Source: Bacteroidales bacterium
Lineage (GTDB): Bacteria; Bacteroidota; Bacteroidia; Bacteroidales; P3
NCBI GenBank assembly: GCA_024400415.1
Contig: JAKSMS010000002.1
Location: 5,679 to 69,678 of the forward strand
DNA length: 64,000 nt
Direction of reading: 5' to 3'
This document shows positions 1 to 57,630 of this stretch, piece by piece. Position 1 is the stretch's first letter, and each line of letters opens with the position of its first letter. The position numbers and the translations under genes are program-made. The notes beneath the pieces are model-generated. The model did not search any database and was not told the DNA's origin. It saw nothing but the letters and a program-made list of their open reading frames with translations.

Positions 1-492
1 TGCTTCGATAAGCAACGTTTTATTCTCGCGGTCAACATTTTTTATCACCTCATCTATTACGGGTATTAGAATCTCCTTTCCGGAATTCATGATTTGGAAT
101 AGGGGCTGTGCCGGATATTCTATCACCGTCTCGAGTCGACCGATAGGACCTTTCTCCACATCTACCACTTCAAATCCTTCAACCTCATGGAAGTAGAATT
201 TGTTGCCTTCGAGTTTAGGGAGCACGTCGAGTGGAAGATAGAGTTCGCGACCTACTAATGAGGCTGACTCATCAGGCGTGAGGTCTTCGAAAGTCACGAT
301 GGCTTTGTTGGAGGACGAGAAGTTCAGCTCCTCGATAAAGTATGGCACCAGGCCATTCTTCGTCTCTACCAATACTGAATCCAGTTCGGCATATTCAGAA
401 GGGTCGTCGACATCTAAAAAAAAGATCACCTGTCCTTTTACTCCGAAAGGCTTAGTGATGCGTCCAATATAGAAACATTCGTCTTTAGTCAT
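1..492 (-). CDS. rimM: 16S rRNA processing protein RimM (C-terminal end runs off the window)
   Basis: Not in the ORF track because no stop lies in the window. My translation from the ATG at 490-492 gives MTKDECFYIGRITKPFGVKGQVIFFLDVDDPSEY...FYFHEVEGFEVVD...ILIPVIDEVI, a RimM-type pattern. Confidence 0.8.
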   Translation of the reverse strand, partial: MTKDECFYIGRITKPFGVKGQVIFFLDVDDPSEYAELDSVLVETKNGLVPYFIEELNFSSSNKAIVTFEDLTPDESASLVGRELYLPLDVLPKLEGNKFYFHEVEGFEVVDVEKGPIGRLETVIEYPAQPLFQIMNSGKEILIPVIDEVIKNVDRENKTLLIEA

Positions 493-547
493 ATATCAAT
501 AAACGCCAAACGTCTCGAAATATTGCGCATCAACGACCTTTCGTCCT

Positions 548-2203
548 TTATATCGTGGGAATGGCATCGAGGAGGTGGCGAGTGTATTCCTGCTGAGGGT
601 TGGCAAAGAGGCCGTCGGCCGTGTTTGTTTCAACGATGCGTCCTTGCTGCATAACCATAATGCGGTCGCTGAGGAACTTGACCACCGAGAGGTCGTGGGT
701 AATAAAAAGGTAGGTGAACCCATAATGGCACTTTAGGCTGTTGAGGAGGTTGAGCACTTGGGCTTGAACAGACACGTCGAGTGCTGATACGGATTCGTCG
801 CACACCACGAGTTCGGGCTGTAGCACGAGGGCTCGGGCGATGCATACGCGCTGGCGCTGTCCGCCGCTGAATTCGTGGGGGTATCGCTGATACCAGTCGG
901 GCTGGAGTCCTACCTGCTCCATGAGCTGCAGCACTTTCTCGCGACGTTCTCGGGTGTTATTGTAAAGCCCATGTATGCGGAGGGGCTCCATGATGGCGTC
1001 GCCAATCGTGATGCGGGGATTGAGTGAGGAGTAGGGGTCTTGGAAGATGATCTGCAGCTTGGTGCGCAGTCGCTTCATCTGGTGATCGTTGAGGCTGTTG
1101 ATGGACTGCCCGTTGTAGCTGATCTGCTGAGACTGAGATTCGATGAGTCGGAGTATGGATCGGCCCAGCGTTGTCTTGCCGCAACCCGATTCGCCTACAA
1201 GGCCGAGCGTCTCGCCCTTATAGATGTCGAAGCTGATGTGGTCTACGGCTTGGAGCGTTTTTCGTGGCTTGCCAAAGAGGCTTTTCTTGAGCGTGTAGCT
1301 GACAGAAAGGTCGCGTACCGATAGCAGGGGAGTGGTGTGCTCTTCTAGCGGACGCTCAGTGCTGTCGGGTTGGCGCCCCTCCATGAAATCTGCTACGGTG
1401 GGCAGATTCATAGGTCGGCTGTTGAGCGGCGGACGGCAGGCTAATAGCCCTTGGGTGTAAGGGTGCTGGGGGTTGTGGAGGATGGTCTCGGCGAGACCTC
1501 TCTCAACGATGGATCCATGGTACATCACGGCCACCTCGTCGGCTATCTGATTGATGACCCCGAGGTCGTGGGTGATGAAAATGATGGCGATATTGCGTTG
1601 CTTCTGCAGCTGGCGCAACAGGGTAAGGATAGTCTTCTGAACGGTGACGTCGAGTGCCGTAGTGGGTTCGTCGGCGATGATGAGGTCGGGGTTGCAGATG
1701 AGGGCCATGGCGATGATGACGCGTTGCTTCTGTCCGCCCGAAATCTCGTGGGGGTAGGAGTTGAAGATTTTCTCAGGGCGCGGCAGCATTACCTCTTCGA
1801 AAAGGGCGATGGCTCTGCGACGTGCCTCTTTTCGGCTCACCGATTCGTGCATGCGGAGCATCTCTACCACTTGGTCGCCGCAGCGCTGTACGGGGTTTAG
1901 TGCGGTCATGGGCTCTTGGAATATCATGGAGATATGGCGGCCGCGTATCTGTCGCATGCGCGACTCTTTGGCGGTGAGTATCTCTTCGCCAAGGAATCGG
2001 ATGCTTCCGCTGGTGCGGCTCTTCTTCTCGGGCAGCAGACGCATGAGGGCAAGCGTGCTTACCGACTTGCCAGACCCCGATTCTCCTACGATTCCGAGGG
2101 TGCGGCCTTTCTCAAGACTGAGGTTGATGCCATGCACCACTTCGTTCTCTTTGCCGTCGTGGAGGAATGAGATGTGGAGGTCGTTGATTTCTAGAAGAGC
2201 CAT
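548..2203 (-). CDS. ABC transporter ATP-binding protein with two fused ATPase domains (Dpp/Opp-type)
   Basis: Two Walker A motifs ([16 protein letters not shown]), two signature motifs ([16 protein letters not shown]) and two Walker B motifs in the 551-aa ORF. Confidence 0.9.
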
Positions 2204-52262: not shown

Positions 52263-52488
52263 CGGTTGGTTGGCTCGAAAATAACGGTTTTCGATGAATT
52301 CTGGCGGATGTGTATCTTGTTGCAGAATTGTGTCGAAAGTTGAGTTTTTGTGTGTTTTTTTCTGGTTTATTTATAAAAAGTTTGTATATTTGTATGTTGA
52401 TAATGACATAGGGTCGGCGTGTAAGAGCGTGGCCTTTATGCCGTTAGATAAATTTTGAATAATAATAACTAATATAAAAAACACAAAA

Positions 52489-52896
52489 ATGACTCCTTCA
52501 CACATCGAACACATCGGTATCGCAGTCACCAACCTTGACGAGGCTATCCGCTATTGGGAAGACGTTATGGGTTTGAAATGCTATGCCATTGAGGAAGTAA
52601 CCGACCAGAAAGTTAAGACCGCATTCCTGAAGTGCGGCGAAGTGAAAATCGAACTGCTCGAGCCTACCTGCCCTGAGAGCACCATCGCTGCCTTCATCGA
52701 GAAGAACGGCGGCAAGGGCGGCATGCACCACATGGCCTTCGCAGTTGAGAACACCGACCAGGCATTGAAAGATGCTGAGGAGAAGGGCGTGAAGCTGATC
52801 GACAAGCAGAGCCGCGGCGGCGCCGAGGGCCTGAAGATCGGTTTCCTCCATCCTAAGTCTACCATGGGTGTTTTAACCGAACTCTGCTGCAAGTGA
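52489..52896 (+). CDS. mce: methylmalonyl-CoA epimerase (VOC family)
   Basis: HIEHIGIAVTNLDEAIRYW, GGMHHMAF, typical 135-aa size, located upstream of mmd genes. Confidence 0.88.
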   Translation: MTPSHIEHIGIAVTNLDEAIRYWEDVMGLKCYAIEEVTDQKVKTAFLKCGEVKIELLEPTCPESTIAAFIEKNGGKGGMHHMAFAVENTDQALKDAEEKGVKLIDKQSRGGAEGLKIGFLHPKSTMGVLTELCCK

Positions 52897-53065: not shown

Positions 53066-54625
53066 ATGGCTTTTGAAGAAAAAATAAAAGAACTTCTTGA
53101 CAAGAGAAATCAGGCCAAGATGGGCGGCGGTCAGAAACGTATTGACAAACAGCACGAGCAGGGCAAGCTCACCGCTCGCGAGCGTATCGCCCTCCTGCTT
53201 GACGAAGGCTCATTCGAAGAGACCGACATGTTCCTGACTCATCGTTGCACCAACTTCAACATGCAGAAGGAATCATTCCTCGGCGACGGCGTGGTGACCG
53301 GTCACGGTACCATCGAAGGCCGCCTGGTGTATGTGTTCTCTTTCGACTTCACCGTTTTCGCCGGCTCACTTTCTGAGACCGTCAGCCTCAAGATCTGCAA
53401 GATCATGGATCAGGCTATGAAGGTGGGTGCCCCAGTGATCGGACTCAACGACTCTGGCGGAGCACGTATCCAGGAGGGTTGCAACTCTCTGGCCGGCTAT
53501 GCCGAGATCTTTGAGCGCAACATTATGGCCAGCGGCGTGGTGCCTCAGATCAGCGCCATCTTCGGACCTTGCGCAGGCGGTTCCGTGTACAGCCCTGCAC
53601 TGACCGACTTCATCTTCATGTCGAAGGAAAACAGCTATATGTTCCTCACCGGTCCTAAGGTTGTGAAGACCGTTACCGGCGAAGACGTTACCGTTGACAA
53701 GCTCGGCGGCGCTATGGTTCACGCTACCAAGAGCGGTGTTGCCCACTTCGTAGGCGAGACCGAGGAGGCTACCATTGAGCAGATTCGCGAGCTGATCAGC
53801 TACATCCCAAGCAACAACATGGAGGACGCTCCTGTATGCCCAACTGACGACCCAGTAGAGCGCATGGAGGACAGCCTCAACCAGATTATCCCTGACAATC
53901 CTAACATGGCTTACGACGTGAAGGACATCATCCGCGCTATCGTTGATGACGGCCGCTTCATGGAGGTTCACGAGAAGTTTGCTCCAAACATCGTTGTAGG
54001 CTTTGCCCACATGGGCGGCACCAGCGTAGGCGTGGTGGCCAACCAGCCTAAGGCCATGGCCGGCGTGCTCGACTGCAACGCTAGCCGCAAGGGCGCCCGC
54101 TTCGTGCGCTTCTGCGACGCTTTCAATATTCCTATCGTGACCCTCGTTGACGTTCCAGGCTTCCTCCCAGGCACTGGCCAGGAGTATGCAGGCGTTATCG
54201 ACCACGGTGCAAAACTGCTCTTCGCTTACGGCGAGGCTACTGTGCCTAAGGTTACCGTTACCCTCCGCAAGAGCTACGGCGGAAGCCACATCGTGATGGG
54301 CTGCAAGCAGCTGCGCAACGACGTGAACTATGCTTGGCCAACCGCTCAGATCGCAGTTATGGGCGCCAGCGGCGCTACCGAGGTGCTTCACGGCCGTGCA
54401 CTGAAAGAGATCACCGATCCAGAGGAGAAGGCTAAGTTCATCGCCGAGAAGGAGAAGGAGTACAACGACCAGTTCTGCAATCCTTACAACGCTGCCAAGT
54501 ATGGCTATATCGACGACGTGATCGAGCCACGCAACACCCGTTTCCGCGTGATCCGTGCCCTCCGCACCCTCGCCACCAAGAAGGATTCTATGCCTATGAA
54601 GAAGCATAGCAACATCCCACTGTAA
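53066..54625 (+). CDS. mmdA: methylmalonyl-CoA decarboxylase alpha subunit / acyl-CoA carboxyltransferase
   Basis: Carboxyl_trans family blocks ([41 protein letters not shown]). 519 aa. Confidence 0.9.
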
Positions 54626-54697
54626 AATAAAGAAATTATTAATAAACCAATTCAATAACCAGGCCGACATGATTTCGGCCACAAAAAAACATCAATT

Positions 54698-54952
54698 ATG
54701 AAGAAAGTATTTTTGACCGCTATGATTGCAGCTGCATTCGCATTTGGTATGACCGCTTGCGGTGGCAACGCTACCGAGGAGACTACCGACACCACCGCTA
54801 CCGAGTGCTGCGAAGAGGCACACGAGTGCTGCGCACACGAAGGTGACAGCTGCTGCCATCACGAGGGCGAAGAGTGCTGCGGTAACCACGAGGGTTGCGA
54901 GCACCAGTGCGACGGCAACCACGAAGGCTGCCAGCACGAGTGCCAGAAATAA
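54698..54952 (+). CDS. Cys/His/Glu-rich small lipoprotein (possible metal binding)
   Basis: Lipobox AFAFGMTAC. Mature part is ...ECCEEAHECCAHEGDSCCHHEGEECCGNHEGCEHQCDGNHEGCQHECQK. Confidence 0.7.
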   Translation: MKKVFLTAMIAAAFAFGMTACGGNATEETTDTTATECCEEAHECCAHEGDSCCHHEGEECCGNHEGCEHQCDGNHEGCQHECQK

Positions 54953-54969
54953 GCACACGCTCCGGTAAC

Positions 54970-55008
54970 GATATTGTTTTGCGGGATTCGTTCCCGCAAG
55001 ACAATATC
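54970..55008 (+). other. 17-bp intra-operon stem-loop
   Basis: GATATTGTTTTGCGGGA ttcgt TCCCGCAAGACAATATC (one mismatch). No T-run follows. Confidence 0.6.
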
Positions 55009-55050: not shown

Positions 55051-55998
55051 ATGAATAAATTACAAAAAGTTATAATAGCTTGCTTTGTGGCTCTGTTTCT
55101 CAACATGGCACCTGTTATGGCTCAGTGTGACACCAACGCCCAGTGCGGATCATGCAAGCCAGTACCTGCTATGGAGTTTCAGGCTAACAAGGCCTGCTTT
55201 GTGGCCGCCCAGGGCGCATACGTGGTGATCGACAGCGTCGACAACACCATCGATATCCTCCGCGTGGGCGACAGCTCGCTGGTTCGCGAGAGCGCTTATC
55301 TCGTGGACGTCATCGAGCACCGCTATGATGTGAAAGACATCATCCGCCCTGTAGACGTGAAGGTGGTTGACGACCACATCCTCTTCCTGGGCACCAGCAA
55401 GAATGATTCTTCCTATTTGGGAATCCTCGATTTCTCGGGCAAGCTCGTGGCCGCCTATCCTATGTCGTGCCACAGCGACGCTTTCGCCCTCACCCAGACC
55501 CCTTGCGGCCACGCCATCGTGATGGTGGCCGGCTTCAACAAGCAGGGCTACAGCCTCCATACCTTCGTGAAGGGCGAGGCTTGGGACAATATGGCCGTTC
55601 AGCCAAGACTTACCACCGACTACCACCGCCCTCTCCAGAGCGAGCGCATCAAGGAGTCTGACCCTGTAGGCGTAGGCCTCACCGTGATCGCCATCCTCGT
55701 AGTGTTCCTGGCACTGGTATTTGTGGCCTGCATGATCGCAATGCTGAGCAAGGTGATCCGCGCTTCAGAGGAGCGCAAGGCTGCCAAGACTGCAGCTCCA
55801 AAGGCTGAGGCCGCTGCCGCCGCTCCAGCTGCTGCTGGCAACAAGGACGCCGAGGTATATGCCGCTATCGCCGCCGCCATCCACATGTATATGGACGAGC
55901 TCCACGACGAGGAGAGCAACATCATCACCATCGAAGAAAAATGTACTCCTTGGAACTCCAAGGCCTACAACATGAACCAAACCAATCTCAAAAAGTAA
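55051..55998 (+). CDS. OadG-family (decarboxylase gamma/delta-like) membrane protein with ~190-aa N-terminal extracytoplasmic domain
   Basis: Signal peptide, long N-domain, TM segment VGLTVIAILVVFLALVFVACMIAML, Ala/Pro linker, C-terminal EVYAAIAAAIHMYMDE motif. The track start at 55033 is a TTG. Confidence 0.75.
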   Translation: MNKLQKVIIACFVALFLNMAPVMAQCDTNAQCGSCKPVPAMEFQANKACFVAAQGAYVVIDSVDNTIDILRVGDSSLVRESAYLVDVIEHRYDVKDIIRPVDVKVVDDHILFLGTSKNDSSYLGILDFSGKLVAAYPMSCHSDAFALTQTPCGHAIVMVAGFNKQGYSLHTFVKGEAWDNMAVQPRLTTDYHRPLQSERIKESDPVGVGLTVIAILVVFLALVFVACMIAMLSKVIRASEERKAAKTAAPKAEAAAAAPAAAGNKDAEVYAAIAAAIHMYMDELHDEESNIITIEEKCTPWNSKAYNMNQTNLKK

Positions 55999-56007
55999 GT
56001 AATCATC

Positions 56008-56427
56008 ATGAAAAACTATAAGTTCAAGATTAACGGAACTGAATATAATGTAGACATCAATTCCGTAGAAGGTCAGGAAATCGACCTCGCCGTAAACGGA
56101 ACCGCTTACAAGGTGACTATGGACCAGGAAGTAAAGCCTGCTCCAGCTCCTAAGCCACGTCCACGTGCTGCCGCTGCTGCTCCAGCCGCTGCTGCTGCTC
56201 CTAAGGCTGCTGCCGGCACCAAGGTTACCTCTCCACTGCCAGGCGTAATCCTCGACGTATTCGTCAACGTTGGCGACACCGTAAAGGAAGGCCAGAAGGT
56301 ATGCATCCTCGAGGCTATGAAGATGGAAAACGAGATTACTGCTGATGCTGCTGGTACCATCACCGAGGTGAAGGTTCGCAAGGGCGACAGCGTTCTCGAG
56401 AGCGACGTGCTCGTAGTAATCGGTTAA
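56008..56427 (+). CDS. mmdC: biotin carboxyl carrier subunit of the decarboxylase
   Basis: Ala/Pro linker and biotinylation motif CILEAMKMENEI. Confidence 0.88.
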   Translation: MKNYKFKINGTEYNVDINSVEGQEIDLAVNGTAYKVTMDQEVKPAPAPKPRPRAAAAAPAAAAAPKAAAGTKVTSPLPGVILDVFVNVGDTVKEGQKVCILEAMKMENEITADAAGTITEVKVRKGDSVLESDVLVVIG

Positions 56428-56460: not shown

Positions 56461-57630
56461 ATGATAACATTAGCTACTGGTGGCTTTATGGATTTCATGT
56501 CAACGCAGCTGGTACAGTTTCTCGGCTATACCGGTTTTGCTAACGTGACATGGGGCCATATTGCCATGATTTGCGTCGGCCTGATATTTGTCTTCCTGGG
56601 TATCAAATTCGAATTCGAGCCTCTGCTGCTCGTGCCTATCGGATTCGGTATGGTGGTTGGCAACATCCCATTCTATCCAGGCCTTAAGATTGGTGTTTAC
56701 GAAGACGGCTCTGTGCTCCACATCCTCTACCACGGCGTGCAGAACGGCTGGTATCCGCCTTTGATTTTCTTGGGCATCGGTGCCATGACGGACTTCTCGG
56801 CCCTGCTGTCCAACCCTAAACTGATGCTCGTCGGCGCTTCCGCTCAGGTGGGTATCTTCGCAGCCTATATGGGCGCTATGGCCCTGGGCTTCAATCCTGC
56901 TGAGGCAGGCGCTATCGGCATCATCGGCGGCGCTGATGGTCCTACCGCCATCTTCCTCTCCAGCCAGCTGGCTCCTCACCTGATGGGCGCTATTGCCGTG
57001 GCTGCTTATTCCTACATGGCTCTCGTGCCTGTAATCCAGCCTCCTATCATGCGACTGCTCACCACCGACAAGGAGCGCCGCATCCGCATGAAGGCTCCTC
57101 GCAAGGTGTCTCAGCTCGAGAAGATCCTTTTCCCTATCGTGGGCTTCATCTTCTGCTGCTTCATCGTGCCTTCTGGCCTTCCTTTGCTCGGCATGCTCTT
57201 CTTCGGCAACCTGCTTAAGGAGTCTGGCGTTACCAAGCGTCTGTCCGACACCGCTAGCAACGCTATCGTGAACATCTGCACCCTCCTTATCGGTATCACC
57301 GTGGGCGCTTCTACCGAGGCCACCACTTTCCTCTCCGGCAAGTCGCTGCTCATCTTCGCCCTTGGTGCATGCTCCTTCATCGTGGCCACCTTCTTCGGCG
57401 TATGCTTCGTGAAGTTCATGAACCTCTTCCTCAAGGAGGGCAACAAGATCAACCCGCTTATTGGCAACTCCGGCGTGTCTGCAGTTCCTGATGCTGCCCG
57501 CGTTTCCAATACTGTAGGTCTGGAATACGACAAGACCAACTACCTGCTCCAGCACGCTATGGGTCCTAACGTGGCCGGCGTTGTGGGTTCTGCAGTTGCT
57601 GCTGGTATCCTCCTCGGATTCCTCCACTAA
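56461..57630 (+). CDS. mmdB: sodium ion-translocating decarboxylase beta subunit
   Basis: OadB/MmdB-type polytopic protein (GADGPTAIF, NLLKESGV, NPLIGNSGVSAVP). Confidence 0.9.
   Translation: MITLATGGFMDFMSTQLVQFLGYTGFANVTWGHIAMICVGLIFVFLGIKFEFEPLLLVPIGFGMVVGNIPFYPGLKIGVYEDGSVLHILYHGVQNGWYPPLIFLGIGAMTDFSALLSNPKLMLVGASAQVGIFAAYMGAMALGFNPAEAGAIGIIGGADGPTAIFLSSQLAPHLMGAIAVAAYSYMALVPVIQPPIMRLLTTDKERRIRMKAPRKVSQLEKILFPIVGFIFCCFIVPSGLPLLGMLFFGNLLKESGVTKRLSDTASNAIVNICTLLIGITVGASTEATTFLSGKSLLIFALGACSFIVATFFGVCFVKFMNLFLKEGNKINPLIGNSGVSAVPDAARVSNTVGLEYDKTNYLLQHAMGPNVAGVVGSAVAAGILLGFLH

Follow-up and report, generated by a model that had tools for sequence, protein, structure and literature searches.

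Why would the operon of a sodium pump carry, in the midst of its subunit genes, a gene for a tiny exported protein crowded with cysteine and histidine? The question is raised by a 64,000-nucleotide stretch of a Bacteroidales genome (GenBank assembly GCA_024400415.1, contig JAKSMS010000002.1), hereafter called the window, a term that refers to the whole stretch analyzed. A first, sequence-only reading of the window had singled out an open reading frame (ORF) of 84 aa that begins with a lipobox-bearing signal sequence and lies in the operon of a Na+-translocating methylmalonyl-CoA decarboxylase (mmd), where mmdA and the gene of an OadG-like (delta) subunit flank it. This ORF (54698-54952, + strand), whose product will be called the mini-lipoprotein, is re-examined here, and both the ORF itself and the matches of its neighbors (Table 1) agree with that description.

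Two answers of different firmness can be given. The ORF is a real gene, because it keeps its position beside mmdA in relatives, its signal peptide has a pN/pS (the ratio of nonsynonymous to synonymous differences per site) of 0.19, and its repeats keep the reading frame; its conservation covers the window's genus and one sister genus, and it is restricted to this clade. As to its function, we lean, at slightly better than even confidence, toward a periplasmic, lipid-anchored, metallothionein-like metal sponge that would act next to delta and probably in concert with its beta domain and ligand-rich tail.

A clade-restricted gene with a fixed place

The reading frame runs from ATG 54698, the only start codon downstream of the in-frame stop at 54656, to the TAA at 54950-54952, and it translates into MKKVFLTAMIAAAFAFGMTAC up to the expected cleavage point, followed by GGNATEETTDTTATECCEEAHECCAHEGDSCCHHEGEECCGNHEGCEHQCDGNHEGCQHECQK as the mature chain. 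The cluster representative of this protein, P0001, is annotated as 10 residues longer (MMSATKKTSIMKK...); the matching stretch of the window has no start codon and reads differently (PGRHDFGHKKTSI). A near-identical strain must therefore differ by an indel in the A-run that precedes the start codon, and the gene is mis-extended by gene callers.

The protein search returned 30 homologues, all metagenomic and none with a name, and in the genome search among relatives each clear match sits between mmdA and the delta gene, with a weak match or none in five genomes of the genus (G017, G011, G005, G007, and G014). A context-blind scan, based on a peptide pattern and one genome per species, found 19 loci, with mmdA immediately 5' in 19/19; all belong to metagenome-assembled genomes of Bacteroidales not yet in culture, with rumen and the guts of horse, deer, sheep, and human as sources, and Candidatus Colimorpha pelethequi is among them. 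Sampling anchored on mmdA, used as a guard against circularity, placed the mini gene in 6/6 genomes of the window's genus (g1) and in 5/5 of the sister genus g69. No small Cys-rich lipoprotein gene follows mmdA in the other Bacteroidales families sampled (0/29), where delta itself comes about 5-90 nt after mmdA, either as a short OadG of 110-140 aa or as a protein of ~300 aa whose N-terminal domain is of the LRINEV...FN type. In the family to which the window belongs, the mini gene was not found in genus g62 nor in six more genera, and in those six delta again adjoins mmdA directly. The conservation in orthologous operons that the first reading had asked about thus extends to the window's genus and one sister genus, but not across Bacteroidales. 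Its statement that the protein is not a canonical mmd subunit stands, both on this absence after mmdA and on the lack of any family match: no NCBIfam mmd-subunit model matches the protein, which falls outside the MmdA/B/C/D set.

The g69 version is larger (132-151 aa), has up to 32 Cys and usually no His, and is built of CCKEGxK repeats. Common to the g69 proteins and to most of those in the window's genus is a central block, C-x-D-[ST]-x-C-A-A-x-N-C-x-x-C, which the window's 84-aa protein has lost. In one g69 species (locus L076), two tandem, near-identical copies of a 147-aa Cys-only lipoprotein gene occur, at +70..514 and +543..984 after mmdA. In the MmdA tree, the mini-bearing genera, g1 and g69, stand on one side of a branch (support 90/73), and together with g62 they form one clade (support 100/99), a grouping that fits a single origin.

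When the family profile was run against 1.84 billion representative proteins, only 33 clusters came up at E <= 1e-3, nearly all with the same architecture, and the profile also matches small non-Cys lipoproteins that share the N-terminus (P0060, P0064, and P0065). The window protein matches no Pfam family at E <= 0.1, no match to a metallothionein family was obtained for 29 members at E <= 0.01, and no member matches any Pfam family. The PDB profile search found no relative, only a match of the signal peptide to a DctP entry (E 0.63). Among NCBIfam models, the PG1828 family lipoprotein (NF050142) was considered and rejected: its match of 28.1 bits lies below the 50-bit cut-off of a model of 59 positions and covers aa 1-41 only; it is noise from the signal peptide, and the model rings widely, with 33 sub-threshold matches to unrelated lipoprotein signal peptides in the source genome and matches in 12/14 control genomes. 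Like the PG1828 lipoprotein, the mini-lipoprotein is a small lipoprotein of Bacteroidales, and the two resemble each other in the signal peptide and in an Asn-rich mature start; the mature parts themselves are not similar. Our literature search found no report of a Cys-rich lipoprotein in mmd operons. The family is narrow and without a name or a Pfam or NCBIfam model, and its members currently pass as "hypothetical protein".

An 88-aa ORF on the minus strand (54692-54958) mirrors the mini gene and scores as coding-like in codon usage; in the frame test, the mirror antisense frame reached 0.25-0.38 bits per codon against 0.33 for the sense frame, and the test does not discriminate. We regard the antisense ORF as most likely a by-product of composition: its frame has no conserved features, and it stays open because the sense codons of the mature part are GC-rich and nearly free of the Leu and Ser codons that would give antisense stops.

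Predicted export, lipidation, and orientation

At the level of pattern, the N-terminus is that of a Sec/SPII lipoprotein, with an MKK n-region, the hydrophobic stretch VFLTAMIAAAFAFG, and the lipobox M-T-A-C21. Across 29 aligned family members the lipobox Cys is invariant and the signal segment nearly so. The first 21 codons, where the alignment is unambiguous, gave pS 0.55 and pN 0.11 over 24 unique genes, and the resulting ratio of 0.19 points to purifying selection on the signal peptide at the protein level. The mini-lipoprotein is thus predicted to be exported by Sec/SPII and lipidated at Cys21.

Whether it faces the periplasm or the cell surface can be approached through the known surface-export signal of Bacteroidetes, whose acidic residues occupy positions +3 to +6 downstream of the Cys, as C-X-K-(D/E)2 or SDDDD, and which in C. 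canimorsus no longer directs export when the motif is shifted by 2-4 residues (PMC5080379). The mini-lipoprotein lacks this signal: its mature part starts C-G-G-N-A-T-E-E (C-N-N-N-A-x-E-E in the family), and its first acidic residues are found at +7/+8. Their position outside +3 to +6 weakly suggests a lipoprotein that faces the periplasm.

Metallothionein-like composition

The 84-aa protein contains 13 Cys, 8 His, and four CC pairs, together with repeated HEG..C(C) units. These totals are the ones given by the first reading, which had assigned all 13 Cys to the mature part, but only 12 of them lie past the lipobox Cys. The mature chain has just one Lys, which is C-terminal. The protein is 15% Cys and 10% His, vs a median Cys content of 1.7% and a 99th percentile of 10% among the 4888 ATG-initiated ORFs that reach 60 aa or more in the source genome, which comprises 1.84 Mb in 79 contigs, and it has the highest Cys fraction among those ORFs that resemble real proteins. 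Its composition is far from chance expectation, and no paralogue exists within the source genome. Tandem Repeats Finder detects two in-frame arrays in the ORF, with periods of 24 nt (54816-54881) and 33 nt (54873-54943), and the Cys/His part is assembled from both, with H-E-G-x(0-2)-C(C) and G-N-H-E-G-C-x-H-x-C as the units.

Over 54 unique members, the mature chains consist of Cys (18.1%), Glu (16.9%), Ala (11%), Asn (8.9%), His (8.7%), and Lys (7.5%), with Leu, Ile, Phe, Trp, Met, and Arg each at <= 0.4%, and they hold 174 CC, 146 CxxxC, and 91 HEGC motifs in total. The length (76-126 aa), the number of Cys (9-24), and the number of His (0-12) all vary freely, and the Cys count is even in 26 members and odd in 28. 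This variable number and mixed parity rule out a conserved disulfide framework and fit metal-thiolate chemistry. AlphaFold2, run with the family alignment, returned a mean predicted local distance difference test score (pLDDT) of 43 and no secondary structure for the mini-lipoprotein; such predicted disorder is as expected of an apo-metallothionein-like chain, and the model is uninformative beyond it.

Taken by composition (low mass, Cys clusters, and at most one aromatic residue per mature chain), by variable Cys count and parity, by few hydrophobics, and by predicted disorder, the protein fits a metallothionein-like profile, although no Pfam metallothionein profile matches it or the 29 members searched. 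The metal-binding look that the first reading had noted is in keeping with all of these features. Regarding the metals, Cu(I) or Zn/Ni seem the most plausible. Cu(I) would be favored because of the Cys-only variants and of the H-x-G-C-[PM]-M-H and Met-rich delta tails described below, while Zn(II), Ni(II), or Co(II) would suit the CC-plus-His motifs equally well; for peptides that combine CC with His, among them the Hpn sequence EEGCCHGHHE, high affinity for Zn(II) and Ni(II) is documented, above that of sites with a single Cys and His (PMC10221980).

In the mechanism that we propose, the mini gene would be co-transcribed with mce and mmdA, and its product would be exported and lipidated as outlined above, most likely facing the periplasm. 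The mature 63 residues would form an intrinsically disordered, metallothionein-like chain of in-frame repeats, in which Cys thiolates and His imidazoles could bind several thiophilic or borderline metal ions, and the binding of several ions would make the protein a periplasmic metal sponge or buffer. It may work beside, and probably with, the periplasmic N-tail and the beta-propeller-like domain of delta, whose tail carries, in relatives, complementary stretches of His, Met, and Cys ligands.

A different view of the same composition is that of a fast-evolving, lineage-specific, low-complexity ORF, which would act as filler, as a generic small lipoprotein, or as a sacrificial thiol or redox buffer. 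The very narrow family (33 clusters in 1.84 billion representatives), the repeat-built and hypervariable chain, and the recovery of non-Cys lipoproteins with the same N-terminus by the profile are what such an ORF would be expected to look like. We nevertheless think it distinctly unlikely, given that Cys richness is kept across two genera despite complete repeat turnover, that the signal peptide is under purifying selection, that the gene is duplicated in tandem in one species, and that delta carries a parallel ligand-rich stretch. The role of a redox-active partner, which the first reading had also raised, is neither supported nor excluded.

The delta subunit as a possible partner

If the mini-lipoprotein is a metal sponge, its fixed place in the operon directs attention to the protein encoded next to it. 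In this bacterial family delta has an unusual make-up: behind a cleavable signal peptide and a tail of variable sequence come an all-beta domain, a transmembrane (TM) helix, and, last, a conserved cytoplasmic OAD_gamma tail. The all-beta domain (aa 45-195) is modeled before the TM helix at a pLDDT of about 90. Foldseek places it nearest to 3-4 blades of seven-bladed propellers (3scy, YncE 3vgz, and BtuG 8bmz), with E-values of only about 1e-3, and the description "partial beta-propeller" is tentative. A word-based search with the periplasmic domain of delta returned only 4 close relatives. This domain of ~150 aa is present in delta of the sampled genera of the window's family, with the exception of genus g75, where L083 has a short delta of 164 aa that lacks the beta domain and bears, after a signal peptide, a small Cys cluster (STCQQTSSCCGY) at its mature N-terminus.

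In the related oxaloacetate decarboxylase (OAD), which forms a beta3-gamma3 complex, the C-tail of gamma is cytoplasmic and its N-terminus is periplasmic (PMC7274780). It follows from the cytoplasmic C-tail that the extra domain and the tail of delta must lie in the periplasm, the compartment that the lipoprotein is predicted to face. The same topology removes the rationale that the first reading had offered for a dedicated metal donor, namely a Zn site on the gamma subunit of OAD: that tail is cytoplasmic (PMC7274780) and the lipoprotein is extracytoplasmic. The structurally defined Zn site of OAD belongs to the alpha subunit, in its TIM-barrel carboxyltransferase (PMC2881705), and MmdA here is of a different carboxyltransferase type (PF01039). 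Being extracytoplasmic, the lipoprotein can donate metal neither to the gamma tail nor to the alpha Zn site.

What the delta tails do offer are potential metal ligands. In g62, which is without the mini gene, the mature delta begins AQDHQHHDGCTGNHDHAANAQHVCGGE, a His/Cys stretch on the periplasmic N-terminus. Many mini-bearing species have delta tails with His tracts and Met/His/Cys motifs, such as AQGPHHHHPHPHGG...DGHCMPMPMGGH, PHEGCPMH, and PDMEMMDHCPMHHMGM; the delta N-tails of L075, L077, L078, L069, L010-L012, L065-L067, and L031 contain His tracts (HHHHPHPH) as well as an H-x-G-C-[PM]-M-H or Met-rich motif that recurs among them. The H-x-G-C-[PM]-M-H and Met-rich motif is reminiscent of periplasmic Cu(I) sites. 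Moreover, 6/7 His-free mini-lipoproteins pair with delta tails of 4-10 His (HHHH tracts, DGHCMPMPMGGH), and H-x-G-C-[PM]-M-H motifs are usual in such tails too. The exception is L076, which has two tandem copies and a plain delta tail that lacks the His/Met stretch of its sister species. Over 35 distinct pairs, the His content of the lipoprotein and that of the delta tail are related by a Spearman rho of -0.42, a nominal value, since the relatives are not independent. The delta tail of the window (QCDTNAQCGSCKP) has a C-x5-C-x2-C cluster and no His, next to a His-rich lipoprotein (8 His). What supports a link to the pump, as judged from the sequences of relatives, is the periplasmic N-tail of their extended delta, with its wealth of His, Cys, and Met.

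How far this link goes is a separate matter. That the lipoprotein and the His/Met/Cys-tailed domain of delta make up a periplasmic metal-binding module, and that this module is a true part of the Na+-translocating decarboxylase, is a possibility to which we give a low likelihood. A structural variant of the idea appears unlikely as well, namely an accessory subunit that docks on the delta beta-domain through metal bridges or disulfides and serves in assembly, in stabilization, or in tethering the inner-membrane pump to the outer membrane. Such a subunit would account for the place between mmdA and delta, strictly conserved in two genera, for the His/Cys stretch carried by delta itself in g62, and for the complementary His content of the two proteins; it also has a precedent in MmdE, the small epsilon subunit, an extra stabilizing subunit of the Veillonella parvula methylmalonyl-CoA decarboxylase. 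Because OAD is beta3-gamma3 (PMC7274780), the delta domains would come together as a group of three at the periplasmic side. It sits poorly, however, with the gain and loss of repeats, which makes the length vary from 76 to 151 aa, Cys from 9 to 32, and His from 0 to 12, all unusual for a docking subunit, with the loss of the one conserved central block in the window protein, and with the presence of the delta domain, but of no such partner, in the majority of genera of this family.

The metal sponge acting beside delta, which we favor, has to face several points that weigh against it. Codon statistics by themselves do not tell the sense from the antisense frame. Pfam, NCBIfam, and PDB searches reveal no sequence kinship to a known metallothionein or metal chaperone family, so that the assignment of function rests on composition. 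The argument from complementarity is weakest in the source genome itself, where the delta tail is free of His, and the statistic for the His anticorrelation ignores phylogeny. In addition, we know of nothing in Na+-decarboxylases that requires periplasmic metal, and the position in the operon could merely provide strong constitutive expression.

Organization of the transcription unit

The coordinates of the operon and of the parts of the mini gene are collected in Table 1.

Table 1. Mini-lipoprotein gene and surrounding operon; positions are those of the window.
Feature	Position	Strand	Basis or remark
Candidate operon promoter, TATATTTG	52385..52392	+	matches Bacteroidetes -7 consensus TAnnTTTG; about 97 nt 5' of mce
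Methylmalonyl-CoA epimerase (mce), first gene of unit	52489..52896	+	TIGR03081 E 8.3e-45, above cut-off
mmdA, carboxyltransferase (alpha) subunit	53066..54625	+	PF01039 E 9e-193; TIGR01117 E 1.7e-236
Mini-lipoprotein, predicted signal peptide and lipobox	54698..54760	+	MKKVFLTAMIAAAFAFGMTA-C; Cys = codon 21, 54758-54760; pattern-based
Mini-lipoprotein, acidic Thr-rich linker, GGNATEETTDTTAT	54761..54802	+	sequence, family alignment
Mini-lipoprotein, Cys/His/Glu-rich metal-binding-like tail and stop codon	54803..54952	+	12 Cys, 8 His in 49 aa
17-bp perfect hairpin	54970..55008	+	18 nt past mini stop; minimum free energy -31.3 kcal/mol, z -4.6
Extended delta (OadG-like) subunit	55051..55998	+	PF04277 matches aa 207-280 only
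Biotin carboxyl carrier (gamma, BCCP) subunit	56008..56427	+	PF00364 E 2e-21
Na+-translocating decarboxylase beta subunit (mmdB)	56461..57630	+	PF03977 E 2.7e-151; TIGR01109 above cut-off

The -7 box upstream of mce is a candidate operon promoter, as judged by its match to the consensus; neither the gap from mmdA to the mini gene nor that from the mini gene to delta contains a Bacteroidetes -7 box. The sigma-70 promoter and terminator scan gave nothing relevant on the + strand, and its consensus does not in any case hold for Bacteroidetes. A conserved TTGATyGTTAT motif occurs about 15-30 nt 5' of the delta start codon.

Between the mini gene and delta there is a strong hairpin. Long, GC-rich hairpins, likewise free of a U-run, are found at the same place in 16/17 relatives (same position in L013-L031), and their stems are unrelated in sequence, which indicates that the structure is kept rather than the sequence. 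In the window, 42 nt separate the end of the hairpin from the delta ATG (55051), and no U-run follows it. The hairpin is a candidate partial terminator or 3' stabilizer, and in that role it would let the stoichiometry of mce-mmdA-mini differ from that of delta-gamma-beta.

This arrangement calls to mind R. capsulatus CutF (PMC9973294), where a small exported ORF with a Cys motif is likewise followed by a stem-loop and a downstream gene. By analogy, the nascent mini-lipoprotein could bind periplasmic metal, stall the ribosome, open the hairpin, and in this way control delta, gamma, and beta in cis, and the strong, positionally conserved hairpin 18 nt past a small Cys-motif ORF and ahead of the next gene is what such a sensor would use. 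We hold it to be highly unlikely. There is no Pro-rich or other conserved arrest motif, the C-termini of the family (HECQK, HNK, HAE, and CCKK) being without Pro; neither the window protein nor the family members match DUF2946, to which CutF belongs; the signal peptide is of the lipoprotein type; the hairpin stops short of the delta ATG and leaves the start region uncovered instead of masking it; and a sensor would need neither 12-30 ligand residues nor lipidation.

The neighbors of the gene also bear on whether the mini-lipoprotein, small, Cys-rich, and exported as it is, might be the precursor of a ribosomally synthesized and post-translationally modified peptide (RiPP), in other words of a Cys-derived metallophore similar to bufferins or ranthipeptides. 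This seems barely credible, as no maturase gene (MNIO/DUF692 or radical SAM) adjoins it, its neighbors being mce, mmdA, delta, BCCP, and mmdB only, and as the gene context is identical in all relatives.

Comparison with known systems

With the metal sponge as the favored reading, the mini-lipoprotein can be set beside several known families. Metallothioneins (SmtA/BmtA, MymT, and the eukaryotic ones) are also small, with 15-20% Cys in CC, CxC, and CxxxC motifs, scarce aromatics and hydrophobics, a disordered apo-form, and a number of Cys that varies between species. To our knowledge, the known bacterial metallothioneins are cytoplasmic. The mini-lipoprotein differs from metallothioneins in having no sequence kinship to them, in being exported, lipid-anchored, and rich in His and Glu, and in being encoded in a catabolic Na+-pump operon rather than at a metal-regulated locus.

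Hpn of Helicobacter pylori, a Ni-storage protein that carries EEGCC repeats, shares with it the CC pairs flanked by Glu/Gly and placed beside His (HEGEECC and HEGDSCC here vs EEGCC in Hpn), but Hpn is cytoplasmic, is 47% His, and has two CC motifs only; no homology is implied. The His/Cys tail of SlyD is comparable too. SilE and PcoE, soluble periplasmic sponges with His/Met motifs from the sil and pco resistance operons, resemble the mini-lipoprotein in its proposed mode of action, that of a disordered periplasmic protein taking up several soft metal ions; unlike them, it is a lipoprotein with Cys/His ligands, and the His/Met motifs are instead found on delta of its relatives. MmdE, mentioned above, is likewise a small extra polypeptide encoded within an mmd operon, but it is not a Cys-rich exported lipoprotein, and mmdE lies after mmdD and not before it.

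By its proposed mode of action, the mini-lipoprotein would belong with the metallothioneins and the periplasmic metal sponges. What is new about it is that it takes the form of a lipoprotein, that its repeats are rich in His and Glu, that its gene keeps a fixed place in a Na+-decarboxylase operon, and that the tails of the pump's delta subunit carry complementary ligands.

Biological meaning

Few bacterial metallothioneins are known to us, and an exported, lipid-anchored, Cys/His-rich metallothionein, if this is what the gene encodes, would be a new solution to metal handling in the cell envelope. The hosts of the gene are strictly anaerobic Bacteroidales of gut and rumen, and the animals in which they live are often on feed supplemented with Cu and Zn. 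Should the module formed with delta be real, the lipoprotein would be an accessory subunit new to Na+ decarboxylases, and the metal status of the periplasm, probably with respect to Cu(I) or Zn, would be coupled to the assembly, protection, or activity of the sodium pump. The fixed place of the gene in the operon of the pump that serves the conversion of succinate to propionate, together with the matching tails of delta, suggests an unnoticed periplasmic accessory to Na+-translocating decarboxylases.

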